Of a DNA stretch of 64,000 bases, positions 3,984-64,000 are shown piece after piece. Numbering within the stretch: position 1 is the first letter of the stretch; each line of letters opens with the position of its first letter. The stretch spans positions 102,920,001 through 102,984,000 of the forward strand of contig OZ336873.1 of NCBI GenBank assembly GCA_965287045.1. Reading direction: 5' to 3'. The notes under the pieces were generated by a model. The model saw only the letters and a program-made list of their open reading frames with translations. It had not been told where the DNA came from and did not search any database. This stretch comes from Carcharhinus amblyrhynchos (taxonomy: Eukaryota). The translations under genes were made by a program, and so were the position numbers.

Positions 3984-4031
3984 TATATTTTTGGAACGAC
4001 TGAATTTTTGCTTCCGTGTGTAATGAGCACA

Positions 4032-4135
4032 AAGAAAGACTTGCATTTATATAGCTCTTCACCAGACATCTCAAAGTGCTTTGCAGCCAATGAAGTGTTT
4101 TTGAAATGGAATAACTGCTGTAATGTAAGAAACAA
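4032..4135 (-). mobile_element. Deu-SINE/L2-type 3' tail fragment
   Basis: Reverse complement ends ...tggctgcaaagcactttgagatgtc...gctatataaatgcaagtctttctt. Similar tail at about 14690-14775. Confidence 0.55.
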
Positions 4136-4436
4136 CAAAACCTGGGGCAGAGTTTAACACCCTCACATGGGTGATTTGGAGGCAGGAAGGCCACGTGATT
4201 GGAGGGGGGGGGGTGAGTTGCAGACTTGAGATTCTGTTGCCTTTCTGTGGCCCTCCTATTAAGCCTGGGGTGGGAAAAAAGCTGGCGAGCAATCTTCTGC
4301 CCAGACACCAATTGAGATCCTTAAGTGGGCAATTAGGGACCTAATTTTCTTGGGGCTCCAAATGATCAGGTTGGCAATGGTGCTGCCAATATTGGTGGCA
4401 GATATGGCATCACTGCCACCCTCAATTCCACTCACG

Positions 4437-4563
4437 GGGTAGGATTCTCTGACTGTACTCACCCCAAAACCAAAGAATCCCGCCCAAGTTCAATGAACCT
4501 TTGCATGGTTTGCCCTCCACCTGCTATAATTCCAGTGGTGGGCAGGACGGGAGAATTCCATCC
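4437..4563 (-). mobile_element. Harbinger-type MITE (family B)
   Basis: TIRs gggtaggattctc / ggagaattccatcc, flanked by acg/atg (3-bp TSD with CpG decay). Internally similar to the copies at 6469, 16168 and 40435. Confidence 0.7.
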
Positions 4564-5503
4564 ATGGTGTCTACTATTCTTCAAAGCTGTTCACTATTAT
4601 TTTGTTGTGAATATTGGACTTAGAAGGCTATTTGTAAGCAGAGATTACCAGTAATTATTAGTCACACACTGCACTCTTCCTTGTTAATCCTTCCAAGTGC
4701 ATCCTGGTGATCATTAAGACGATATTATGGAACAGGTGAACTGTTACTCTATTCAAGTATTTCCCCATGTACTTGTATACAGTCTTCACAGGTTTATCTT
4801 CAACGGACACGTTGGGGGAAGAGAGGATGGTGAATCTATTCTACTTATTTTATGTCCAAAGTAGAATTTATTCCCTTGAAATCACATCTTTAATTTTGTG
4901 ACTTCAACAGAAACTTTTCATCTCATTAATTTTATTTTGAAAAATCTCATAAATTACTTTTATTTCTCCCCTTCCCACACAGCTCTGGGATGATTGAGTA
5001 AATGGTCGCGGGCACCATCATTGCGAGTCTTTACTTAACGTAGCAGTGTGGAATGATCCTCCTTTTCTAGTGGCATAATTTTACCCCACCCCTGAAAATC
5101 AGAATAAAAATGCTGGAACTATCTTTTGAGACAGATGGATATAAATGTCTGCGAAGACATGCATTTTGACTTGTCTTTTCTAATTGGAAATAGAATACTT
5201 TAGGCTGAACCTATATTATACATCATCCAAGCACTTAGCAGGTAGATTGTTGGTCTGGTTCAATGAATTATACCATGGCTTTTTTGCACTGATGTGCACA
5301 TAAACTTCAATACATCAACTTAAAACTGTTAGAATATAGTGCTTTAGCTTTACAGCTTTCAGATAGCATTTTATTATTAACTATTGAGTAGATGACACTA
5401 ATCAGTTACAGGTATAATATATTTTAACAATCTTCCACACTATAATAGACAAAATCACTGTCTTTCAAATAGTGACATGTTATTTTCATCATTTGTTTGT
5501 TAG

Positions 5504-5635
5504 GTTTAACTGCTGCAGCAATGGCTGAAGCGATGAAGTTACAAAAACTGAAACTTGCGACGATGAATAATCTCCATGGTAACGGTAGTCAAAATGGCAC
5601 TGAGTCTGAGAATGAAGAACTGAATTCTAGCACAG
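5504..5635 (+). CDS. DACH2: Dachshund homolog 2 internal coding exon (132 bp, phase 1/1)
   Basis: Pyrimidine-rich acceptor ttgttag|GT and donor ACAG|gtgagt. Translates to (G)LTAAAMAEAMKLQKLKLATMNNLHGNGSQNGTESENEELNSST(G), which closely matches recalled vertebrate DACH2 AAAMAEAMKLQKMKL...GNGSQNGTESE. It lacks the long poly-Ala tract of the equivalent DACH1 exon. Confidence 0.93.
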
Positions 5636-6468
5636 GTGAGTTCCCAGTCTGTAAGTATGAGCTACTCAAAGACAAAAGTTATTTGGAGTTAGTTTGCCAT
5701 GAATAGTTATCATCATATCTTTAACACAACGTGCCTATCACAGTGCCAGCATGGCAGCTGTATCCTGCCAAAAATCTACTACTTTGCAAAATCTCACTCT
5801 CAAAGTCCACCCAGAATCTGCTGCAAAAGCAAACATAAGTTTGTGGCACTTGATGTTATGAGTGTATTAAAAAGCAACACAGAAATTTGCGGCAAGGCAG
5901 AGGTACAAGATGAATTGCCAGAATGCAGTTCCATCCAGTTCCATCACAAAAACTTGGACCTTGCAGTCAACCTCCCCATGAATCTTATGAAATTGTTGGA
6001 CTTGGGCAAGTATGAATCAAACTCAGTAGTTAGAGCTGCTATTTCATCATACAAGACCAAGGTTAAGAGAATAATTTATGATCGGCCCAGAAAGAGAACA
6101 GTCAAAACTGAGGAGTGTCACTCTTGCAGATAATAAACTGTTCATAGAGATTTCTTTAAATGTTGGCTTTCTTTTTTTTGGTCACTTTTTCTATCTCTTA
6201 ATCCAAACTTTATTTCTCCTTTTATTTCTTTTGCTGTCTTATTGGATTCTATTTCTTCCTCTATCATTTCCTCTTTTTTTCTCTTCATCCTTAAAATCAT
6301 TGGCTAAGGAGATAGACTTTTGGTAACATTATTCATTAAGATTCTAGACGTTCTGCTTTCTCGACTTTACCATTACTATTTGCAATTTGCAGAACAAAAA
6401 TTATTGAGGAAAAAGTTCCAACTCATTCTCACAGACAAATTTTGGGCCAAAATCTTTTCAACGTCTAT

Positions 6469-6594
6469 AGCTGGGATTTTCCAGCCACGCTCGGCCCGAA
6501 AGCAGAAAATCCTGCCCAAGGTCAACAGATCTTTCCCTGGTTCGCCCCTCGCCCACAACGATTCCTGTGGCGGGTGGAACAGAAAATTTCACCC
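6469..6594 (-). mobile_element. Harbinger-type MITE (family B)
   Basis: gctgggattttcc ... agaaaatttcaccc. The reverse complement aligns with 40435-40559. Confidence 0.7.
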
Positions 6595-7029
6595 TTATGT
6601 GTTGTAATGCTTCCAAACATTTATAAAATTAGGACAGGCAGTCTGATTACAGAATACAGATTGCATCTCACTATCTGATAAAGCAGGTTGTTCTTGAAAA
6701 CCTTCCAGCAGTCGTGTCTCCATCAGGAAATATTGAGTAACAAAGACAATCTATTGGATTGATCACAAACTATTGGATTAACTGAACTGATGAACTGCCG
6801 ACTTTCTAAAAGGTCCACAGTTTTCCATGGTGTGCATAAATCTTTAGGCACAGTAGGATATGTAAAAGATGCAGGTCAAAATGAATACATAAAAACATTA
6901 ATCGATAGTTCAAAATCCTTTTCACCAAATTCATGTTTTTTTGGCATTTTCACTAACCAGGCTTAATTGTCAGAGCATAAAGAATCAAATGAACAGTTAA
7001 CATTGATATTGATAAATTAGTAAATTTTA

Positions 7030-7293
7030 CACAGTGCCAGCGACTCGGGTTTGATTCCAGTCTTGGATGAATGTGCGGAGTTTACACATTTTCCCCGTGT
7101 CGTGTGGGTTTCCTCCCACAGTCCAAAAATGTGCAGATTAGGTTGATTGGCCTTGCTAAATTGCCCCTTACTGCCAGGGGAACTAGCAGGGGAAATGCAT
7201 GGTGTTACGGAGATAAGGTCTGGGTGGGATTGTGGTTGGTGCACACTTGATCAGCTAAATGGCCTCCTTCTGTACTGTTGGGATTCCAGGATT
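7030..7293 (+). mobile_element. HE1-like V-SINE (CR1-type tail), 5' truncated
   Basis: B-box-like gggtttgattcc, V-domain gtgggtttcctcccacagtccaaa, tail aatggcctccttctgtactgttgggattc. Confidence 0.85.
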
Positions 7294-8371
7294 TTGAACG
7301 CAATATATGCTTAAAGAACAGTGTTCTAAGAAATAAAATGGCGTGACATTTAAATGTCTTGGGATTCAAGAAGGTTTGTCGAAAAGCAAATTGCCAAATG
7401 AAATCATTGCAATAAAACTCAGGACCCAGCTATACAGAACACTAGGGGCTGGAAGTTGAACCTTTATAGCAGAGCAGACGCCAGAACTTCTCACCCAAAC
7501 TCAGTAGACCATTTGCTGGTTTATCAAATTTTCCATCCCACCCACAACAATTACTGCAGTGGATGGGACTGAAAACTCCACCCTAGATTCCTGAGAAAAT
7601 CAGGGGATAAAGTTTTAAAAGAAGACAGGAAAGCAAGAAGCAGAGGATGCGGAAATAGTTGAGAACATAAAGTGAAGATAGTAGAAATTGAGGAAATAGG
7701 TGAGAGACCATGCGGTCTCTGAGAGTGGGTTGAGGAGCAGACTAAAGACAGCATAGATTGTAAAGGGAATAAAACAAGTGAAAAATGGAGACTATGGGTA
7801 GACAGAGGTAGGTACCGGAGACAGATACTGGAGAATCAGGGGAAAACAGTACACACTCAAATGAGAACCAGGTTGAGAGAGGAGAATAGACATTGGAATA
7901 AACTGCAAAGGGGAGAGATGTGGATATTGAGGAGATTTGGAATGAATGAAAGTGAGATATCATTGCATATTTTAATTGTGAAGATCAGATTAAATTTATA
8001 AACAAATGATAACATCTCAGTGACAGCACAAATATTGATGCATCATTTGTGTTATTTCATCATTGACTTGAACAAAGTAAAGTACTGCTGCATTTGGGAA
8101 TTAGTAAGTAGTTTATAGCAAGGTTTTTCATGGGATGAAACCAGATAGAACACAAACTACTGCTTCTGGCTTCACTCACATCTCATTAAAATTATCTATT
8201 TTAGTAAACTATTGTACAGTTATGTGCAAGGCACATTCTCATTAGCTGCTATTGATTTTAGAGCTTAACTATTTCCAGGTTGACGGACAGAGAAAAATGT
8301 CTGCCACTGCATCAGCCGGCTACATCCCCCTGCTGCCTTGTAGTTTTCTGTTGACTATCTTTGCTACTACT

Positions 8372-8570
8372 GGGGGGTCAGTTAGCTGAATTGGCTGGAC
8401 GGCAGGTTCTTGGCAAAGCCAACAGCAGGGTTTCAATTCCCCTACTGGCTAAGGTTATCCAAGAATGCCCCACGTTCACAACCTTGCCCTTCATCTAAGG
8501 TTTGGCGATCCTCAGATTAAATCAAAGGAGAGAGCAGTCTATGGTCCTCTGGGACTGTGGCATCTTTTTG
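8372..8570 (+). mobile_element. tRNA-derived SINE, family unassigned
   Basis: A-box-like tcagttagctgaattggctg, B-box-like gggtttcaattccc, T-rich end after ctatggtcctctgggactgtggc. Confidence 0.55.
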
Positions 8571-8896
8571 TTTTGCTATGCTACTGCGTAGAAATTGGCT
8601 GAAGAAAGCTGTTGTCCTCAAAAGTATTTTCACCTGAAAACTGTTACAGTACTACTCCACTGATAAAATAATGCAAATGGAATTGCAGTAAGAAGTAGTT
8701 CTGTAAAAGCTGTGTGTAAAGTGTGCAAAAGTATAGATAAAAAAAATTTTAATTCTGGAGAGAAAAAATTGAAAAAAGAGAAAAAATGTTCACAAGTACA
8801 CCTTAAATACTTGTATGCACACACTGGTCTTATTTGGCTTAATTTCTTAATTATATCCCTTTGCATTGAAGTGTGTAGCAGAACAAAGTACTGTGC

Positions 8897-9447
8897 TTTG
8901 ATTTGATTTGACTTATTATTGCCACTTGCATTTGGTGAAAAGTATAGTTTCTTGTGTGCTACACAAAGCATACCATTCATAGAGAAGGAAATGAGAGAGT
9001 GCAGAAGGTAGTGTTAAAGCCACAGCTAGCCATAGTAGAGAAAGATCAACTTAATGCAAGGTAGGTCCATTCAAACGCCTGACAGCAGTAGGGAAGAAGC
9101 TTGTCTTGAGTAGGTTGGTATGTGACCTCAGACTTTTGTATCTTCTTCCCAATGGAAAATGGTGATAGAGAGAATGTCTGGGGTGTGTGAGGTCCTTAAT
9201 TATGCTGGCTACTTTGCCGAGGTAGCGGGAAGTGTAGACAGAGTCAATGGACGGAGGCTGGTTTGCGTGATGGATTGGGCTTCATTCACAATCTTTTGTC
9301 ATTTCTTGCGGTCTTGGGCAGAACAGGAGCCATACCAAACTGTGACACAACCAGAAAGAATGCTTTCTGTGGTACATCTGTAAAAGTTGATGAGAGTCGT
9401 AGCTGAGATGCCAAATTTCCTTAGACTTCTGAGAAAGTAGAGCATTT
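8897..9447 (-). mobile_element. Rex1/Babar LINE 3' fragment
   Basis: Minus strand encodes LYFLRSLRKFGISATTLINFYRCTTESILSGCVTVWYGSCSAQDRKK, typical of the Rex1 C-terminus. It ends in an (AAATC)n tail. Confidence 0.85.
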
Positions 9448-11276
9448 GCTGGAATGTAAGCCAGCCATGGGGGAGGTTTAAGGGATGAATGGCAACAGCA
9501 GCTGATTTTCCAATCCCATCCTCTCCAAGAGCAGTATATTTTAGAATCATTACAAGTGGAACTTGCCTTTCTGATTGCTGAACGCAACTGCGTCAGAGTC
9601 AGATGGTAGAATGCGAGTGATTCCAATGTATCGTGGTCAAGCAAATGATGGATTTGGTAGGATTAGAACTAATTCTCAGTTGCTACATTAAACAAGGTGC
9701 AAGTTTATTTTGAACTGGCTTTTGCATTGAGTGACACTGAATTAAGGTTGAATTCAATGTAAGTTGACAATATAGTAGCATAATGCGAATGGTTTTGATT
9801 ATTGGAAACTTGCATTATAATTATCTTCCCATGCACAAGATGTACAAAATCTCCAAATCCCTATTTGTATTGAATGGAAATCTTCCTGGTTTCAGCTTTT
9901 GACTTCACGGAACAGCCAGGTTAATGAATTATAGCATCAGTAAAATTGTCAATAATTTATTATCAACTTATATACTCTGAGCCCCAAGTATGAAATATTC
10001 CAAAAGTTTTCAAACCTACTATTTTGATTAATTGCCTTATCAGTTACAGATCATCTTCCTTTGTGTTAAATAGCACAGTTCATTGAACAGTATCTGTTTG
10101 AGTGTTCACTGGAGTGGCTAGGAAGCTCAGCCTTGAGTAGTTTTTACTTCAACTATCGTAGTCTTGGTCTTTATTTAATGGTTTCTGCATGATTCTGCAT
10201 TGCCATTCCCCGATGACTAACAACCTGTTACAATTCTGCGATACTCCAAATTCAAAATACCATGCTTTATTGTTTTAGTAAATTGCTTTCAATTTATTGC
10301 TGCCTGTGCTTTGTAATCCATAAAGCATTAAGACTGGTGTGCACAGTTACATAAAAATATTTCATTGATTGGTCCTGCTACCTGCCATAAGAACAGAGTT
10401 AGGTGTAAGGTTCCATACTTTATTGTTACCCTAACAGTGTTCCTATAGGAGTTTGGTTGGAAACAAATTGCATAAGCAATCCCAACCTATTTTCATAAGC
10501 ACACAATGGGGGATTTGTTTTTCTGTTTGCAAGAGGAGCAAAGCACCTCCAGTGATATAATTTTATTACATCTTATTTGCCTTTATTGCAATAAAACAAA
10601 AGCCTCCAGTTAGGTGCAGTGGTTATCATAGGGACTGTCAAGTATGGCTTTAGACAATCTTACCCTTCGATAATAAGTTTATTTAAAGTAAAAAATGAAG
10701 CTGAATGAACGGGTAAATAGTAGGAGCACATTTTGTCATCTGTAATGAGTTAACCAGGTTGCAAGTCTATGATTGTTTTATTTTATGCTTACTGGTTAGC
10801 ATCAAACAATGAAGAGCATTTTGGAGGCACCAGATCAATATAAATTCACTGGTTGCCACAGGGCACCAGTCGAGCCCAAGAATGAGCAGCGTATGTGGGT
10901 CAGGTGGTAAATCTGCAACCAGATTAACCTATTAGGATCACAATTGCATTGCTCCCTGAAGGAGAAAGGTTTTTGTTATTCAACCTCTGATCGTAACGAA
11001 CAAATAAAAATGAATGCACATCGTATCAATTACAGTTAGTAATACCAAGGAATTGTTCAATGAGGATCCACACTTTAATGACCATGTCGACAGGGACTTC
11101 ATGTAAAATATTTTTAAAATAATTTTGGCATTTCTCTCCTAACTGGTTTTCTTCCAGCTGACTTGGGTCTTCTGAACTTTCCAGAAAGAATGAGAGGGTC
11201 TTAATAAAGACCGTTCGGATTGGTTTGTGTCCAGCTACTCCTCTAGAAATAAACATTGCAGATTCTCCATCCTACT

Positions 11277-12999: not shown

Positions 13000-14050
13000 C
13001 CAAAGTAACAAGGGTCTAGCACTCTTTAATTCAATGTATAACCTAAACTTGCCTCCTATGTATTTATAAAGCCAATAAGGAAGTGTAGAGACAGGCAATG
13101 ACAGGAAAGCCAAGAATGGGTTTTATTTTTGTGGACAGAGGGTATCTTACAATGATTCCTAATGGTCTTGACAAATAAAGCAAAGGAACAGCTCTAACAA
13201 AATGTCCAATATGCAGCACAACCTGTCTGTCAGTGAGTGACTCTGCATCATGCATGTGGGCTGTTTTCTAATGATTGGAGTGTGCAGACACGTTTCAAAA
13301 TGTGTCCGTGGCAAGACTGTCAATATAAGTTGTTTCTTGACTGTGTAATGTGTTGGAACATGAATATGCATGAGAGACAATGAAAGAAAATTTCAAGATT
13401 ATGTGAGGCTGTGGCATGAGCCAGCAGAAAAGTTGCAGCAATGTTTGTGACAGGTTGATGGTAATATTTTGGAGTGAGCATGCTTGAGCATTGATCAAAT
13501 GAACAATATAGTTGGGCAGAGTTACTTTGGCATCTTCCTCCACATCCTTGCCCAGATTATATGAGCAGCGTAAACAGAAGTTTGCACCGGTGGCATCTCC
13601 TAGTAGGCATGCTGCATTGCTGCCTTCTAGGAACTGTATCCTGGATGGCCAATTGGAACAACTTTTCTCTCATCCTATGTCCATTCTGCAGAATCTTCAC
13701 CTTGTCAATCATTGGAAAGGTGATTTGAATCTGTGCCACTCTATCCCTTTCCCATCAGTTCGGTTTGCTGTTTCTATATCTGTTGGATCATTCTTTAATT
13801 TTTGGCCAGTTGCTATTTTTGCTTGAAGCCTTTGGGGAAGCTTCATTGCCTCTTTGAGTTTGCTTACCTTAGCAATGACTACGTTGCTTTCAGTGTTGGC
13901 TGCAGCTTTGGAACGGCTGATGGCAGATGCAATTATAATATCTCACGCCAAGGAACCTGGACTCGGGGCTCATTGGAAGTACTTAAGAGGTGCTAACCTC
14001 AGGAGACAGCTGTCTAATACAGTAATCTCGGCATTCCATTCCCAGCACCT
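13000..14050 (-). mobile_element. Ancient RTE-like LINE relic
   Basis: Fragmentary minus-strand translations resemble RTE ORF segments (KLK.G-type, INLSQT, L.HIGH..R). Heavily degraded. Confidence 0.4.
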
Positions 14051-16167
14051 TCACACCAGGATGGAAAAATCTACACTGATATTCTTTTTTACAAAACAGT
14101 GCAAGGCAAGCCCAGTTCCTGGAATGTTAAGTTCAATTCCTGTCCTCCCATTAGCTTGAAACGCAAAATGGCTAAAACAATTTCCACTTCCATCATGACT
14201 GTTAATCTCCACAGAATCTGAAAATAGCCCCGAGTTTCAAGGAGAAAAATACTCATTTACTCCTGGTGTAAAAATTTGCATTGCGTTCACTCAATTTAAT
14301 GTTACTTTTAAAAGATCTCATGCTAACAAATACGAAGGGGAGTTGCAGTGACTGTTGATAGCTTGCATGCTGCCAATTAGATCCTGGTTACAATGTGAAA
14401 ATACTGTACAGGATTGATTGAAAAACAGGGAGTTCAGATAAAGTTTGAAAATAGGGAGTTCCTACGGAAGTCACTGCATTAAGCTGTTTTTTTTTACATC
14501 ACAAGCTGATGGCTTTTTCTCCCACAGTATAATCATCCTTGATCATGTGATAATTTTAACCTCTTGCCCTCTACAATCCAACCACAGACACAAAATACGA
14601 TAATCTATGAATATTTATGTGCCTCTGTCAAAACATACAATCTTTTTTTGATTTAAAAAAGTAGCACAAACTTCCCATATTACAGAAGTGATGACCTTTC
14701 CAAAGTACTTCATTGACTATAAAATGCCCTGGGAGGTATTGCGATGGTGAACGGTGATATATAAATGGAAGTTTTCTCAAATCTTATAAATATATCGCTG
14801 AGGTTTAGTTATATAGCTCCAATAGGTACTTTTGCAATTACGATGCACTTGTTTAAGAGAATTGCTTGTAGCTTGGTTTGTCCACTCAGTTTGCCAGACA
14901 AGGCACTGGCAGCAGTCAGTAAGGCAGCAGTTCACAAGATCCGTGAAAACTAGACCTCCACTGCCACTGCAACATGCAGAGTGAGGAGATTTATATTTCT
15001 AAGTGCAGCTGATGACAGAAGAACTACATATTGACAGCTCAATCTGCCACTAAAGTAAAAAGTATTTTACAATGTAATCTTAGCCCCCAGGAAATGGAGA
15101 ATACAGCTCGGGCATCGCAGAAAGACAGCAGCTGAAGATGAAAAAAACTCACTAGCCTCTGATCTACAGGTTTACTTGCTGGGCAGTCAATTGTAATGGA
15201 ATCTTGTCAGGGAAAATCAACATCACAAAGGCTACTGCAGTGGGGTTGGGACTAAAGGTTGACATTTTAAAAGAGAATCACATGTATTATTTAACAAACC
15301 ATGAACCATGATTGCAGAGCCAGCAAAGAAAAGGTGATGCAGATTAGGCCAGTGATAATGCCTAGGTTGCAATTCATAGCAGAACCTTTTTAGCTGTGCA
15401 CCTGAAATGAATCACTTATTAGCTTCTGACACAGCCACATTTTCCTTATTTTAATTGCACAATAAATGAAGCTTTATAATCCTTGCACCCGTTTCACACA
15501 ACTGCCTCTTGCCATGCTTGTCACACAAACTCAAAATAATTTCCTTCTAAATATTGTAACCATTTTAGCTTTGGATAACCTTTCTAAATTGGCTCTGAAT
15601 TGAATATTTTGCAGAAGTTGCCAGCACAGAACATTAGGAAAGGAATAGTGTAACTTCAACCTACTCCTATTATCATTATGACTAATTTAATAACTTTCAT
15701 AGCTTTTCTATTTTTGAAGTGGTAGACTTCACAGACTATGTTGGGTAGAAAGAGATATATTCTTAATTAAGTCTGTTTATTTTTATTGTATCACCATCAT
15801 CATCATCCTAAAAATAAATGATCGTCATGATTTATGCATGAATTTCTCAAACTCTGAATTCTGTCATCTCCAAAAAGAATATTCAAACAAATGAATTCCT
15901 GCTGGAGGGGCAAGATTTTATTTTGATATAATCAGCATTGCAGTGAAGATAACGGTCTAACAATGGTGCTGTGTGAAGATTAACATACAAGTGTTTGACA
16001 TGTTGGCTTCGCATTAAATATGTGTGTTGATCTTCGTATAGTATAATTTCAAGGTCAAAAAGCCAAATTGCAAGATATTGATGGCACACGATCATTTAGA
16101 GCATACCAAAGTTTTTTCTTAAAAGTTTCTTCCTTAATGTAGTGTTTAACCCAATCTTGTATTCCAT

Positions 16168-32412: not shown

Positions 32413-32921
32413 AGAAGGTTCACTAGGCTAATACCGGAGGTGAGGGGGCTAGCCTATGGGGAGAGATTGAATAGACTGGGTCTTTACTCGTTGGAGTTTA
32501 GAAGGCTGAGGGATCTTATAGAGACATATAAGATAATGAAGGGGCTAGATAGGGTAGAGGTAGAGAGATTCTTCCCACTTAGAAAGGATAGCAGAACTAG
32601 AAGGCACAGCCTCAAAGTAAGTGGCGGGGGGTGGGGTGGCTGCAGTTTAGATCGGAGTTGAGGAGGAACTTCTTCACTCAAAGGGTGGTGAGTCTCTGGA
32701 ATTCTCTGCCCGTTGAAGTTGTGGAGGCTACCTCGCTGAATATATTTAAGTCACGGGTAGATAGGTTTCTGATAGACAAGGGAATTAAGGGCTTTGGGGA
32801 GAAAGCAGGAAAGCGGAACTGATCCATTTCAGATCAGCCATGATCTTGTTGAATGGCGGGGCAGGCTCGAAGGGCTAAATGGCCTACTCCTGCTCCTATT
32901 TCTTATGTTCTTATGTTCTTT
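32413..32921 (+). mobile_element. CR1 LINE 3' fragment inserted in the Gypsy relic
   Basis: RRFTRLIPEVRGLAYGERLNRLGLYSLEFRRLR..., RRNFFTQRVVSLWNSLP, and a (TTCTTATG)n tail. Confidence 0.93.
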
Positions 32922-35862: not shown

Positions 35863-37500
35863 TGCTGAAAATTGTCAAATGCAGTCAGTGCATAAGGAGG
35901 TGTTTATCAGTCTCTGAGTGTGTTACCATACTAATTGCTTTTGCACAGTTGTTTGGTGAATCTTTGGAAGTAGTCTTGCGAAGGATATTTTCACAGGTTT
36001 GATAATGACTAAAAGGCAATCCTTCAGCATACCTACCGGCTGTGCAGACAAAGCAGTTACAGAGCGAGTAATAGAGAGGTCCACGAAAGGGAAAGATTTC
36101 TCATGTAATATTGGAGAAGCATTTTCCTTTTTAAACAATAGGCTACAATATCAGTGAATGTCAGCACCAGACTTTTAATGGGTTTTTTCTGTGAGAAGGA
36201 AGTTACACATTAATCAGACTTTAAGGTGTACGCCAGTAAAAATCTGACAATTTCTTAGCACGGTGCACATCGCTGACTGAAAGTAATTCCATGGGTTCCG
36301 TACAATTTCCTCAGGAGAACATAACTTTCCATTTAATAAACTGCACATAATACAGGTACATTTCAATTCCATTGCATTATACCATGCATCACACAATAGT
36401 TGAGAAAGATGTGTACTGACAATGGGCACCATCACAGGAACACCGGGCTGCCGCTTGTAAATGATGAGTTGCTGAAGGGAAATGACAATAATTGCATTTG
36501 ATTACCTTGGCACGCAGTAAGGTTATGTTTCTGAACTCAATAACATAAGCCCTTGCCTCGGCAGCAATTTATATCTGACCAATATTTCGATATCAAACAC
36601 TTGGTCACATAAGCCAATGGAGTGTTGCGGTGTCAGTTCAGCTTGATGCAAATGCTTTTATTGCAAGTGAGTTGGAGCCCGTGAGAGTAAGAGTTACACC
36701 TGAAGCCCTCCGGGCAGGAACAGATTTGTTTGGATTTCCAAAAGCGTACATGCACACCAGGCAAAATGGGAGACCACATTCTTGCCTGGGAGGAAGGGCA
36801 GCTTTGTTTGCAAGATGAACAGCTACAATTCACTTTATGTTTATATGTCCCAAGGAAACTACATGTTTATGTTGTGAGATCCATAAAACTTACCATTTTT
36901 ATAAAGACATATGCTGAGATTTATGGGACAGGCCCAATATAAACACTTAAATCCTATTTTGTACCCATAAAATGTTATTAAAAGCAATAAAAAAGGCATA
37001 TATCTTACTGCGTTCTATAAATGAATATAAGTATTGTATAGTTATGCATTCAGTTTCTGAGAAAGTGCATCTTGCAGCTAGTGAAATGTTGTGCTTTGAT
37101 CCATGCAAATTTTCAGTAATTTTCAATGTAATACATTTAATATTTGCCTTGAATTATATAATTCCCACAAATTTCTCCATAAAACACACCGTTGCTTAGT
37201 GAACATGATATTCGGCACAACAAGCTTAGCTTAAAATATGTTGCTACATCATTGGGGTAGGTTTGACAGTAGATATAAAGCTAACAGCGCTAACTGTTAC
37301 TCATTGGAGTTTAGAATGAGAGGAGACCTTATTGAGACATATAGGATTCTGAGGAGGCTTAACAGGGTAGATGCTGAGAGGCTGTTTCCACTTGTGGGAG
37401 AGTCTAGCACCAGAGGGCATAATCTCAGGGTAAGGAGTTGCCCATTTAAGATGAAAAGGAATTTTTTCTCTCAAAGCGTGGTGAATCTGTAGAATTCTTT

Positions 37501-37657
37501 TGTGGTTTGTGAAAAGAAATCCCACTCACCTGACGAAGGAGCAGCGCTCCGAAAGCTAGTGGTGTTTGCTACCAAATAAACCTACTGGAGTTTAACCTGA
37601 TGTTGTAAGACTTCTTACTGTGTTTAACCCAGTCCAATGCTGGCATGTCCACATCAT
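37501..37657 (+). mobile_element. Short Penelope-like/retrozyme-like element with 9-bp TSD
   Basis: TSD gaattcttt at 37492-37500 and 37658-37666. Contains a hammerhead core and AATAAA (37575-37580). Confidence 0.8.
37523..37564 (+). ncRNA. Minimal type I hammerhead ribozyme motif
   Basis: CAC-U-CAC | CUGACGA (37530-37536) A | stem II GGAGC-AGC-GCUCC | GAAA | GC-UA cleavage site | GUG-GUG pairing with the 5' CAC..CAC. Palindromic AGCU replaces helix III. Confidence 0.75.
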
Positions 37658-38099
37658 GAATTCTTTACCACACAGAGGACAGTAGAGGCTGCGTTATTAA
37701 GAATGTTCAAGGCTGAGATGGACAGATTTTTAAGTAGTAAGGGAATCGGGGTTTTTTGGGGATACATTGGGAAAATGAAGTTGAGGATTATCAAATCGGA
37801 TCTCACTGAATGGCAGAGCAGATTTATTGGGCCTTACGGCCTATTTCTGCTCCTATATCTAATGATCTGTTATCTATTAGAAAAAACATACAATAACTTC
37901 CACTGAATGCATTATTAAACATGGAAATCTGAAAGTTACTGTTGGAGATGAACTGCTTCTTCAGATACCAGTACCTCACCCAGACAATCATTACTGAAAT
38001 GCATTGACTGGTGTGAATTTGATATACGTACCTGATATACACTAAACCTGATGAAGGAGATGATGGTTTGTATCTTGGGCATGACTGAGCACACTCATG

Positions 38100-38460
38100 A
38101 TGATGATACGTTCCTGCTTTACGGCCCTTTTAAACTTAAAGATTACCCTCGTCTTGCTATGGCATGAATGGCAAGCTGCTGCTGACGTGAACCTCTTGCT
38201 TCATGTCTCCAACCCCCTTCCCTCACACCAACCTTCCCTTCCTAAGTTCCTGCTTTCAGACCAACCAAGAACTGCTGTCTGCCAAGCTCCAGGAGGAGGA
38301 GAGCGCAACGGCACAGCATTGATAAAGGGATCCTGTCACCAGATCCACCGCTTGCAGCCAGCAGCTCAGATACTGGCACTGCGTATACCCTGGAGGCCAT
38401 CAGCATGTTGTGAGGCACCGGACACGGTCGACCTACAGCCAGGCCAGAAATAAAAGATAG
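38100..38460 (+). mobile_element. Harbinger ORF1 gene fragment
   Basis: The segment cttgcagccagcagctcagatactggcactgcgtataccctggagg...ctacagccaggccagaa is homologous to the reverse complement of ~1370-1495. Confidence 0.5.
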
Positions 38461-38479
38461 TTTGTTTTCGAGCGCACTG

Positions 38480-39278
38480 GAAGCCGAGGAGACAAGTGGC
38501 AAGTGACATTCAAGCCACACAAATGTCAGGCAGTGACCATCACCAACAAAGGGACAATCTAACCACCACCCTTTGACATTCAATGGTGTTACTATCACTG
38601 AATCACTGTCAACAGCTTTGGGGTTACCATTGACCAGAACTGGACTTGCCACATAAACACAATGGCTACAAGCGCATGTCAAAGGCTAGGAATACTGTGG
38701 CGAGTAAATCATTTCCTGAATCCCCAAAGCTTAACCACCATCTACAAGGCACAAGTCAGGAGTGTGATGGAGTACTCTCCACTTGCCTGGATGGATGCAG
38801 CTCCAACAACACAAGAAATTTGACACAGGAAAAAGCAGCCTGCTTGATTGGCACCACATCCCCAAACATCCACTCCCTCCACCACCGAAGCTCAGTAGCA
38901 GCAGTGGAGTTGTGGCTTATCATATCTACAAGATGCACTGCACAAATTAACCAGCGATCCTCAGACAGCATCTTCTAAACCCATGACCGCTTTCAAAGAA
39001 GGACGAGGGCAGTAGATACATGGGAACCCCACCACCTGAAAGTTCTCCTCCAGCCACTCACCGTCCTGATAGGAAATATATGATCGTTCCTCCATGGTCG
39101 CTGGGTCAAAATCCTGGAATTCCCTTCCTCACAGCATTGTGGGTCAACGTACAGCACATGGACTGCAGTGATTCAAGAAGGCAGCTCATCACCACCACCA
39201 CCTCAAGGGCAACTAGGGATAGGCAAGAATTGCTGGCCAGCCAGTGAAGCCAATGTCCCACGAATGAATAAGAAAAAT
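38480..39278 (+). mobile_element. CR1/L2-group LINE (family B) 3' fragment
   Basis: Encodes TIYKAQVRSVMEYSPLAWM..., QEKAACLIGTTSPNIHSLHHR. The 3' UTR ends aatgaataagaaaaa. Confidence 0.85.
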
Positions 39279-42100: not shown

Positions 42101-43168
42101 ATAATTTGGATAGGGTGCTGTTTATCACAAAAGATCCATAATACACAAACGGGACATTCAACCCAAGATGTTCATGCCAATCCTTATGCTCCACTTAATT
42201 CTGTTCCTGTTTTTCCTCATCTGAATGTAGCAGCATAATCATCCCTTTCTTCCTCATACGCTTGTCTAGTTTATAAGCATCCATACTATTCACTTTCCCC
42301 ACTCCCTGTGGTAATGATTCCCACTCTCTGAGCAAAGAAGTTTCTTCTGAATTCCCTATTCCATTTCTTGGTGACCATTTTATATTGATGGGTCTAGTTA
42401 TACTCCTTCCCCATAAGGGGAAACACTTTCACTGTATCTCCTCTAAATTACAAAATGTTTTAATAAAGGTTTCCATAGGATCACCCCCTCAACTTGCTTT
42501 TCTCACCCACCAGTTGGAGAATTGGCCAGAGCTCCACATTGCTTCTATTACGGAAGGCTATTGTGATATTAAGTACTACATATCACATCATATTAGGCAC
42601 TGAAATGGCCAGCATTGAGCCTTCCTTGAGATTAAGAATTCTGGGGACAGCAGTCATTGCTGTCAGAGCCACCAGGAGCAGTGGCAGCTGCTGGTAGTGC
42701 ACCTAGAGGCCCAGATCAACTAGGGAGCCCAAGTCAATAACTGTGGGATGGGCGTTGAGAGGGAGAGGGAAATAGGGAACAGAGGCCAGAGGAATGGGGT
42801 TGGCTCTCTGTGGTCTGATGCTGGACCCCGATTACGTATGACTGAGAGAACCTCACCCCCAAAAACCTGTCCAGCTTCGCTTTTTGGGCTGAGTGTCTAC
42901 TACTCCTTACACTGAATATCAGCAGCGATGGATAAGGCTCCTTAGCTATTGATAAGCCTTCCTGATTAGGCTTAATCAGGTGGAGACAGGAAGATGGCAG
43001 GGTCCTCATAATGTATCCTCTCAGATTAGGCACACCACCACCTTACTCCCAGGGGCAGTGGGGTGTGGGGGGAAGGCAAGAGCATTATGTTCAATAACTT
43101 ACCCTCGCTTATATTTTGTATCAGATGATAGATAGAGCCTGTTGGGTTAGTAACTCCAGGCTCTGGGT

Positions 43169-44412
43169 GGATGTGTCTAGGGCGGTGGATAGAGGAGAGC
43201 CGGTGGATGTGGTCTTTCTTGATTTTCAGAAGGCGTTTGACAAGGTACCTCACAAGAGGTTATTGCAGAAGGTCAGGGGACATGGAGTTGGGGTTACGGT
43301 GATAGCGTGGATAGAGGATTGGTTGTCAAATAGGAGGCAGAGAGTGGGGGTCAATGGGTGCTATTCGGACTGGCGGATGGTGACTAGTGGAGTGCCCCAG
43401 GGGTCGGTGCTGGGGCCTCAGCTATTTACCATTTATATAGATGATCTGGAGGAGGGAACCGAGTGTATGGTGTTGAAATTTGCTGATGACACCAAGATTG
43501 GTGGAATGGCAAATTATGCGGAGGGTGTGGAGAGTCTACAGAAGGATCTAGATAGGCTGGGCGAATGGGCCAGCAAATGGCAAATGGAATTTAATGTTGG
43601 CAAGTGTGAGGTGGTCCACTTTGGTAGGAATAATGGTAGGAAGGATTATTACTTACGTGGCGAAAAACTGCAGCAGGCGACGGTGCAGAGGGACCTCGGG
43701 GTCCTTGTGCGTGAGTCGCAAAAACCCAGCTTGCAGGTGCAGCAGGTGGTCAGGAAGGCTAATGGGATGCTGGCCTTCATAGCAAGGGGGATTGAATATA
43801 AAAGTAGGGAGGTCTTGCTGTAGCTGTATAGGGCATTGGTGAGGCTGCAGCTGGAGTACTGTGTGCAGTTTTGGACGCCATACTTACGCAAGGATATTTT
43901 GGCCTTGGAGGGAGTGCAGAGGAGGTTTACTAGGCTGATGCCAGAGTTGAGGGGGTTGATCTACGAGGAGAGGCTGAATAAACTAGGCTTGTACTCGTTA
44001 GAGTTTAGAAGAATGAGGGGAGATCTCATTGAGACGTATAAGATGATGAATGGGATGGATAGGATAGAGGTGGAGAGACTCTTCCCGCTTAGAAAGGATA
44101 GTAGGACTAGGGGACACAGCCTCAAGATAAAGGGGGAGCGGTTTAGAACGGAGTTGAGGAGGAACTTCTTCACTCAAAGGGTGGTGAATCTCTGGAATTC
44201 TCTGCCCGTTGAAGTGGTGGAGGCTGCCTCGCTAAACATTTTTAAGACGCGGGTTGATGGGTTTTTGATAAGAGAGGGGATTAAGGGTTATGGGGAGAGG
44301 GCGGGAATGTGGAACTGAGCCACGACAGATCAGCCATGATCTTATTGAATGGCGGGGCAGGCTCGAAGGGCTAGATGGTCTATTCCTGCTCCTATTTCTT
44401 ATGTTCTTATGT
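43169..44412 (+). mobile_element. Young 5'-truncated CR1 LINE (RT domain and 3' UTR)
   Basis: VDVVFLDFQKAFDKVPH, SGVPQGSVLGPQLF and KFADDTK motifs. A single premature TAG at 43821-43823 splits the ORF. (TTCTTATG)n tail. Confidence 0.96.
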
Positions 44413-49733: not shown

Positions 49734-49889
49734 GTGGAAGTAAATCTTTGTGGGGCAAAGAGAAACTCCAGTCACCCACTACCAGAGGGTCAGAGGACGT
49801 TGTCAACCATGTCACACTGTCTAGTCAATACAATTTCTTAGCCACACACCTGCTTAGCCTATCCCAACAGAATTGAGCCAAGAGTAAAG
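49734..49889 (+). pseudogene. DACH2: Decayed (pseudo-)exon of DACH2, the cassette exon normally lying between the two flanking exons
   Basis: Translates to GSKSLWGKEKLQSPTTRGSEDVVNHVTLSSQYNFLATHLLSLSQQN*AKSK, resembling recalled DACH2 GSESSWDKDKMQSP...LQQNHLLTN and DACH1 SSDGSWDKETLPSS...HPLNHLQQSHLLPN. In-frame TGA at 49874-49876. The acceptor reads caa|GT instead of cag, and the donor reads G|cacagt. Confidence 0.8.
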
Positions 49890-54705: not shown

Positions 54706-54878
54706 GATTAGAGTTGCCATTCATGATGATGCCCCACCCCCTCATCCCTGTCAGCCTACCTCCTGCATCGGTTACCATGGCAATGAGCCAGATGAGTCAC
54801 CTCAGCACCATAGCTAACATGGCAGTGGCAGCCCAAATGCACAGTCCCCTTTCCCGAGCAGGAGCTTCTGTTATTAAG
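54706..54878 (+). CDS. DACH2: Dachshund homolog 2 internal coding exon (173 bp, phase 1/0)
   Basis: T-rich tract then aaaag|GA acceptor, and AAG|gtaagc donor. Translates to (G)LELPFMMMPHPLIPVSLPPASVTMAMSQMSHLSTIANMAVAAQMHSPLSRAGASVIK, a hallmark DACH segment. The QMHSPLSRAG portion is DACH2-like. Confidence 0.95.
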
Positions 54879-62722: not shown

Positions 62723-63058
62723 GAGTCTTCCTGCTCAGAAAGGACAGTAGGACTAGGGGGCACAGCCTCAAGATAAAGGGGGGGGCGGTTTAGAACGGAG
62801 TTGAGGAGGAACTTCTTCACTCAAAGGGTGGTGAATCTCTGGAATTCTCTGCCCGTTGAAATGGTAGAGGCTGCCTCGCTAAATATTTTTAAGACGCGGG
62901 TTGATGGGTTTTTGATAAGCGAGGGGATTAAGGGTTATGGGGAGAGGGCGGGAATGTGGAACTGAGCCACGACAGATCAGCCATGATCTTACTGAATGGC
63001 GGGGCAGGCTCGAAGGGCTAGATGGCCTCCTCCTGCTCCTATTTCTTATGTTCTTATG
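62723..63058 (+). mobile_element. Young CR1 LINE 3' end
   Basis: Nearly identical to 44080-44411, same (TTCTTATG)n tail. Confidence 0.93.
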
Positions 63059-63501
63059 AGTATGATAAAGGATGTTACGTTTCATATCTGAATTATAAAA
63101 TGGGATCAGTAAACTTTGATAAATAAATTATTTTTCAATACAGATGTTTTATAGTGTTGTAGGTAAATTGATGCCTTTGGGATGTGTTAATGGTAAATAA
63201 TTTATTGACTAGATTTAAATACAAGTGAGCAGAAAGTACCCAAATGATCATTTAATAAAGAACATAATATTTTGATTTGACCTGTATTTGAGTAGAAATA
63301 TGTTGAAATGTTTAAATGTTTAATGACAGTATTTTCCACAGTAACATCAGTAGTAAGAAAATATTTAAGTATGTATATACAAACGTGAATGAATAATGAA
63401 AATTAACCTTGTATTTCGGAATGTAGGGAATGCCACTACAAGCCAGTAAAGATTACACTCATCTACTTGGACAACCTCTTGAATTTTTGTTCTGCCACCA
63501 G

Positions 63502-63637
63502 GAGCGGGTTCATAATAGCCCATCCCCAGCACCGTCCCTTGAAGACAGTCACCGGCCTGGAAGTCACCCCTCTTCACACCAGAGCAGCAGTGTGTCTAGC
63601 TCACCATCCCAACATGACATTGCCTCTGACAGAATAT
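63502..63637 (+). CDS. DACH2: Dachshund homolog 2 internal coding exon (136 bp, phase 0/1)
   Basis: Acceptor ttttgttctgccaccag|GAG and donor ATAT|gtaagc. Translates to ERVHNSPSPAPSLEDSHRPGSHPSSHQSSSVSSSPSQHDIASDRI, matching the DACH ER..SPSPAPSLEE..RPGS..SSH.SSSVSSSP segment. The phase is compatible with the upstream exon. Confidence 0.94.
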
Positions 63638-64000
63638 GTAAGCAAGTTCTTGTTATTGAACTTTCTGAACTATTACACACAGCTCGAAATTTACAGCTCT
63701 TTTGTGTTGATTAAGTATTTCTGATACTTGCAGTCTGTTTAAGCCATTATTAATGTTTGAATGCATTATTACACAGTTTTAAATAATTACCAAGCTGCTG
63801 CATTGAGAGAATATAGCAACAACAATACACTGGTCACTTTGAATTGGAGCTTACATAATGGCATGAGCCAAGATCAAAAATAGATCGTTATTTTCCAATG
63901 ATTACTTCAGTCTCAAGATAAGAATTGAATTTACCAATATGCACACATCTATATATCTCACATAAAGACGTGGTGATTTTATTTCACTGACAGATCGGTG

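Follow-up and report, generated by a model that had tools for sequence, protein, structure and literature searches.

The closest described counterparts of the element analysed here are the minimal type I hammerhead motifs of metazoan Penelope-like elements (PLEs; Cervera & De la Pena 2014, PMC4209133), which are described there as mostly single and as "probably related to truncated PLEs". PLE insertions are reported to be heavily 5'-truncated and to carry a 30–40 bp tail (PMC8557442), target-site duplications (TSDs) of Adineta PLEs are given as 8–10 bp (PMC3846280), and endonuclease-positive (EN+) PLEs are described as nicking AT-rich DNA, with reverse transcription beginning at fixed internal sites (PMC11167929). 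For an Anolis PLE, subtraction of the positions given in the same study (+111–118 minus +26) places the start of reverse transcription 85–92 nt after the hammerhead cut, again in AT-rich targets. A second described system is that of the animal non-LTR retrozymes, whose monomers are reported to be dispersed and frequently intronic (44% in X. tropicalis; bioRxiv 10.64898/2026.07.22.740005).

We studied a window of 64,000 nucleotides from the shark Carcharhinus amblyrhynchos in which a 157-bp insert, lying within an intron of DACH2 between two exact copies of the 9-bp TSD GAATTCTTT, carries a minimal hammerhead (Table 1). We consider it probable, at roughly 0.8, that the insert is the dead-on-arrival, 5'-truncated end of an EN+ PLE, that its hammerhead is passive and that DACH2 RNA is most likely left uncut. 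The insert would then be a single dead end among a great many from a known retroelement class and would extend the 2014 observation to cartilaginous fish; the abundance of its family and the fixed 3' end described below provide material for examining the role of the pLTR hammerhead and the start of the template RNA in PLEs.

Table 1. Features of the DACH2 locus and of the insert, in coordinates of the 64-kb window
Feature	Position	Strand	Basis or remark
DACH2 (dachshund a) exon upstream of host intron	5504..5635	+	tblastn 86–96%, 8/8 cartilaginous-fish proteins tried; AG/GT ends
Host LINE, old 3' fragment divided by insert	37298..37870	+	68–76% alignments to window copies; RVT_1 in the copy at 43098–44318
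Left TSD, GAATTCTTT	37492..37500	+	identical to 37658–37666; target word single in 4 other CR1-type copies
Junction bases TGTG, outside family sequence	37501..37504	+	loose ends of the family join at 37505, 4/4 runs
5'-truncated pLTR end of very high-copy putative PLE	37505..37657	+	depth, upstream continuation, fixed 3' end
Minimal type I hammerhead	37523..37564	+	core bases, descriptor, fold; matches published minimal hammerhead consensus
Stem I, CAC/GUG	37527–29 / 37559–61	+	extendable by 37523–25/37562–64 across bulge
Hammerhead core CUGACGA	37530–36	+	followed by extra A at 37537
Stem II, GGAGC/GCUCC	37538–50	+	5 bp, 3-nt loop
Hammerhead GAAA	37551–54	+
Palindrome AGCU in place of helix III	37554–57	+	no helix III loop
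Cleavage triplet CUA	37556–58	+	predicted cut after 37558
AATAAA	37575..37580	+	also in family loose-end consensus behind 37561
3' end stem-loop CCAGU/GCUGG, C/A-rich loop, then fixed terminus	37629..37657	+	fold; contig ends at 37656–37658
Right TSD	37658..37666	+	first G completes ATG at 37656–58
DACH2 exon downstream of host intron	54706..54878	+	peptide identity, tblastn
DACH2 exon	~63427–63645	+	tblastn

The host gene was identified from its exons. The peptide encoded at 54708–54878 matches cartilaginous-fish proteins named "dachshund a / homolog 2" at 100% identity in 49 cases and at 98% in 12, and these 61 DACH2 matches are the top 61 of the 120 listed; the ESM Atlas and PDB returned nothing for the exon. 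Since all DACH2 exons in Table 1 lie on the + strand, the insert is intronic and in sense orientation, as a first-pass annotation of this DNA had proposed, with ~32 kb to the working exon on one side and ~17 kb to that on the other. The last of these exons has two apparent acceptors, some isoforms aligning from 63427 and others from 63499. In addition, the window contains at 49734–49886 (+) a DACH2 cassette exon that isoforms in other cartilaginous fishes contain. Five of the eight proteins tried align to it, at only 63–71% compared with 84–100% for the other exons; AA replaces AG at its acceptor, and an in-frame TGA is found at 49874–76. Judging by these changes, the cassette exon looks dead in this lineage.

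The LINE divided by the insert is one that we take, from its sequence motifs, to be of the CR1 type. Elsewhere in the window, four CR1-type copies align through the insertion site without a break and contain the target word once each, the closest of them (56424–56035) matching the locus without the insert at 74% over 408 columns. Because the insert-free flanks align as one piece in which the target word is single, the insert is younger than the LINE and the target was duplicated. The earlier annotation of a perfect 9-bp TSD around these 157 bp, and of a CR1-type copy split by them, is confirmed. The 20 bases 5' of the insert have a GC content of 30%, i.e. the target is AT-rich. Stop codons occur in all three frames of the insert, the 157-bp copy contains no RT or GIY-YIG ORF, and the locus holds no tandem or inverted pLTR copy, both of which are optional features of EN+ PLEs.

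A hammerhead descriptor applied to both strands of the window found a single site, in the insert, compared with 0.025 sites for each of 200 dinucleotide-shuffled windows (0.005 when a palindromic helix III was demanded). A hammerhead-like pattern that arose by chance, the insert being another short repeat, would fit the outcome of the Rfam search, in which no hammerhead family was found among the six matches at E ≤ 10 in 36000–39000 and no gathering-level match was obtained across the whole window. It would also fit the observation that the insert folds only modestly better than its shuffles (z −2.14 with the TSDs and −0.62 for 37510–37657). Against this stand the absence of any descriptor match among 20,000 shuffles of the insert and the agreement of features outside the core with the published minimal hammerhead consensus; an Rfam miss would, moreover, be expected for a motif without helix III. 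We therefore regard a chance pattern as barely conceivable, and the intact minimal hammerhead that had been annotated, with all of its parts and the downstream AATAAA, is borne out. The AATAAA is probably the element's own poly(A) signal. A 13/14 near copy of the hammerhead 5' core lies 518 nt downstream at 38046–38059 (+), without stem II or GAAA, and is probably due to chance or a much older relic.

The motif resembles the metazoan PLE hammerheads in considerable detail (PMC4209133). Shared features are the CUGANGAH core, a single additional base placed between 9 and 10.1, the G10.1–C11.1 pair, the short stem I, the lack of helix III, the palindromic 15.2–16.2 positions and the occurrence as single dispersed copies in large numbers. 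By eye, the nearest rows of Figure S3 of that study are those of a turtle (Chrysemys), which shares the AGCU palindrome and has CCAAAUAAA downstream, and Xenopus(2), which has the same CUGACGAA core, a cut after A and AAUAAAC downstream; in both rows AAUAAA follows, and neither is marked as ORF-linked. One supplement file of the same publication gave no matches for shark, Callorhinchus or Leucoraja, and among the papers listed in our literature search, with Repbase and Dfam outside its scope, none treats the hammerhead of this shark family.

The family to which the insert belongs is seen in contigs of related organisms. Contigs from four of the 22 listed runs (X5, X8, X12 and X17, from four related organisms) were aligned to 36900–38100 at 80% likeness. 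Relative to the unique flank, depth over three bins of the insert was 128,728–271,228x in X5, 33,759–59,488x in X8, 123,935–253,363x in X12 and 132,349–344,118x in X17, ratios (~3x10^4–3x10^5) that give an order of magnitude only and no copy number. The insert family is very abundant, and the depth ratio suggests far more copies than the 4,000–9,000 motifs reported for coelacanth and Xenopus (PMC4209133). Orthologous flank contigs are present in all four runs and, among the pieces listed, none bridges the insert; joints that skip from 37500 to ~37671–37697 are probably derived from further CR1-type copies, and we did not treat them as empty sites at the orthologous position. X12 also has a 15-nt insertion at 38077. 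Family motifs gave no matches in viral contigs, metagenome contigs or prokaryote genomes, collections that are not expected to contain shark DNA.

The loose ends of these contigs, taken from the 24 rows listed of 2,616, define the two ends of the insert differently. At the 3' side, 217 and 196 contigs of X5 stop at 37656 and 37657, and 239, 260 and 200 contigs of X8 stop at 37656, 37657 and 37658, respectively; beyond these positions the loose ends have a median length of 255 and an agreement of only 0.33–0.35. Since the contigs stop here and their flanks disagree, the family has a fixed 3' end that leads into unrelated flanks. For X12 and X17, a 3' pile is not among the 24 loose-end rows listed. 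The element and its target may share the G at 37658, and the ATG that this G completes may, weakly, be the element's ORF start; the X8 consensus past 37658 starts GCTAC, with an overall agreement of only 0.35.

At the 5' side, by contrast, the loose ends before 37505 (147, 205, 86 and 65 contigs in the four runs) form one consensus with an agreement of 0.72–0.74, visible for 30 letters. This common upstream sequence indicates that the family is longer than the DACH2 copy, that the copy is 5'-truncated and that 37501–04 are junction bases; family homology thus seems, from the position of these joins, to start at 37505 rather than 37501. The TGTG at the junction may be untemplated or may, together with 37505, form an inverted 5-nt scrap from the 3' end; the 5-nt match between the junction and the reverse complement of the insert's 3' end is so short that it gives no more than a hint. 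Further loose ends reveal subfamilies that differ around the hammerhead core, and the DACH2 copy differs from the family consensus behind 37583 at five of 30 letters, a proportion that is inflated, since loose ends start where a mismatch occurs.

These data bear on the two origins that the first-pass annotation had offered, a truncated Penelope end or an independent 157-bp ribozyme-bearing family. The second was rejected: the 5' boundary of a 157-bp SINE-like unit is not shared, the common sequence running on upstream of 37505 in all four runs. The first is supported, since the fixed 3' end, TSD, minimal hammerhead and copies running on upstream together make up the published pattern of 5'-truncated PLE ends, and the insert is very probably a solo example.

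A short non-autonomous element derived from a PLE, a bit longer than the DACH2 copy, could nevertheless produce a similar insert if it were transcribed by itself and moved in trans by PLE proteins, either as a retrozyme monomer or as a SINE-like pLTR unit. The hammerhead-bearing part of the family is very abundant, and depth falls ~5- to 10-fold from 37515–55 to 37505–14 in all four runs, where the bin depth is assigned to 10 family bases. A possible reading of this drop is that many copies begin shortly before the hammerhead rather than at random; diverging subfamilies or edge clipping account for it equally. Retrozymes with a mean consensus of 363 bp are reported from one chondrichthyan genome, with dispersed, pLTR-related monomers (bioRxiv 10.64898/2026.07.22.740005), and pLTR formation is also known for non-autonomous PLEs (PMC8557442). 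The locus itself fits such a unit less well: it holds no tandem unit, the 5' boundary of the copy is unshared, no low-agreement 5' pile is found among the 24 loose-end rows listed of 2,616, and the motif is of the minimal PLE type, most described retrozymes being tandem repeats with canonical type I hammerheads (PMC7229834). We consider this origin unlikely.

Animal non-LTR retrozymes are like the insert in being short, non-coding and pLTR-related and in carrying a dimer-dependent type I hammerhead (PMC7229834; bioRxiv 10.64898/2026.07.22.740005). As described, however, they form tandem units with mostly canonical hammerheads and give rise to circular RNAs, whereas the insert stands alone, is truncated and has a minimal motif. 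The retrozyme hammerhead has a helix III of 1–2 bp with a loop, a 6-bp stem I and a 4-bp stem II (PMC4209133), compared with no helix III loop, a 3-bp core stem I and a 5-bp stem II in the insert. Two retrozyme features, head-to-tail tandem units and the canonical motif, are missing at this locus; the window contains one copy.

Because depth drops just upstream of the core, we also keep in view a PLE-dependent SINE-like reading in a broader form. According to this, sharks would harbour a short non-autonomous element, derived from a Penelope pLTR and enormously amplified (order 10^5 copies), with an RNA start slightly upstream of the hammerhead and SINE-like copying by PLE proteins; introns would hold copies at such density that pairs within one pre-mRNA might assemble into active dimers, and the insert would be a slightly clipped member. 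We regard this as quite unlikely. If true, it would amount to a PLE-dependent SINE-like family and a latent source of ribozymes in vertebrate introns.

Returning to the truncated PLE end, the likeness to published EN+ PLE truncations (Penelope/Poseidon, Neptune; PMC8557442, PMC3846280, PMC11167929) extends to a fixed 3' end ~100 nt after the cut, the predicted cut lying 99 nt before the family's 3' end, and to a small C/A-rich stem-loop near this end, 5' truncation, a 9-bp TSD and an AT-rich target. By analogy with PAc (PMC11167929), 37629–37657 is a candidate region for the start of reverse transcription ("tail"); its predicted stem-loop does not fold better than shuffles (z −1.3). Unlike such truncations, the insert has no adjacent inverted copy or partial tandem (a 5-nt scrap at most). 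The PAc ORF is described as beginning inside the hammerhead (PMC11167929), whereas the only candidate ATG of the insert is at its very 3' end.

We propose that the insert arose by one aborted target-primed insertion of ~153 nt. The GIY-YIG endonuclease of a PLE would have nicked an AT-rich site within the old LINE fragment, and the reverse transcriptase would have begun at a fixed site in the 3' end of the terminal repeat, ~99 nt past the hammerhead cut, and halted after ~153 nt, 25 nt beyond the hammerhead core. Repair would then have left the 9-bp duplication and the four junction bases. The hammerhead would be an ordinary pLTR motif of the element, passively carried, which, if it is active, would act within the full-length element RNA, either as a dimer or together with the element's protein; the lone, mutated copy would be transcribed only within the DACH2 intron, most likely without cleavage.

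Structure predictions are consistent with a passive hammerhead. In the isolated 47-nt core, stem I forms with a probability of 0.82–0.86 and stem II with 0.98–1.0. Stem II persists in all contexts (0.95–1.0), but the probability of stem I falls to 0.025 in the whole insert and to 0.002 in a 361-nt context. Stem I is predicted to be mostly unformed there because 37556–62 pair instead with 37582–88 (probability ~0.7); two of the pairing bases, 37584–85, are positions at which the DACH2 copy differs from the family consensus. For the 47-nt core, the predicted energy of the active dimer is −25.9 kcal/mol, that of two monomers −27.8 and that of the best cofold −35.1, so that the active dimer lies 1.9 kcal/mol above two monomers in nearest-neighbour energies, which ignore core contacts, Mg2+ and proteins.

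The suggestion that the insert might cleave by dimerising in trans with other copies was not upheld. No second copy occurs in the 64-kb window (search at ≤30% mismatch; blastn), the predicted folds described above sequester the substrate strand, and in the published minimal hammerheads no cleavage is reported for the monomer and low cleavage for dimers and trimers (PMC4209133). Eight of nine Xenopus dimers tested are likewise described as not cleaving (bioRxiv 10.64898/2026.07.22.740005), and the RNA reads described for PAc include none ending at its cut site (PMC11167929). From the modelled folds and these analogues, cleavage of DACH2 RNA by the insert is unlikely. More generally, the copy might act on DACH2 either through cleavage of the pre-mRNA on pairing with another copy or through the use of AATAAA as a cryptic intronic poly(A) site. 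Its sense orientation and its intact core and AATAAA would allow this, DACH2 extends past the window so that its pre-mRNA may contain another copy, and the Anolis PLE hammerhead is reported to cleave on addition of the element's protein (PMC11167929). Weighed against the missing partner, the predicted misfold, the unfavourable dimer and the published cleavage data, and considering that the copy lies far from both flanking exons and that nothing indicates selection on it, we judge any such action very improbable.

Other features of the window were recorded in passing. A Pfam scan of 21 of the 70 long frames in the window gave only RVT_1 (43098–43820) and ALKBH8_N (9299–9589), and no PLE domain; a scan for bacterial promoters and terminators, a method not applicable to this organism, returned nothing. 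Several long, overlapping stop-free frames at 13295–14160 (−), three of which were scanned without a Pfam match, could represent a decayed coding element or a retrocopy. The ALKBH8_N match (E 1e-5) lies in a frame at 9299–9592 (−); the ALKBH8_N model additionally hits some LINE reverse transcriptases of fish in their C-terminal part, and the frame is probably a repeat fragment. The RVT_1 match belongs to the longest LINE fragment in the window (43098–44410, +), presumably also of the CR1 type, whose frame is broken, with a stop near 43823, and whose 3' end has closely similar counterparts at ~62800–63050 and 32480–32910.
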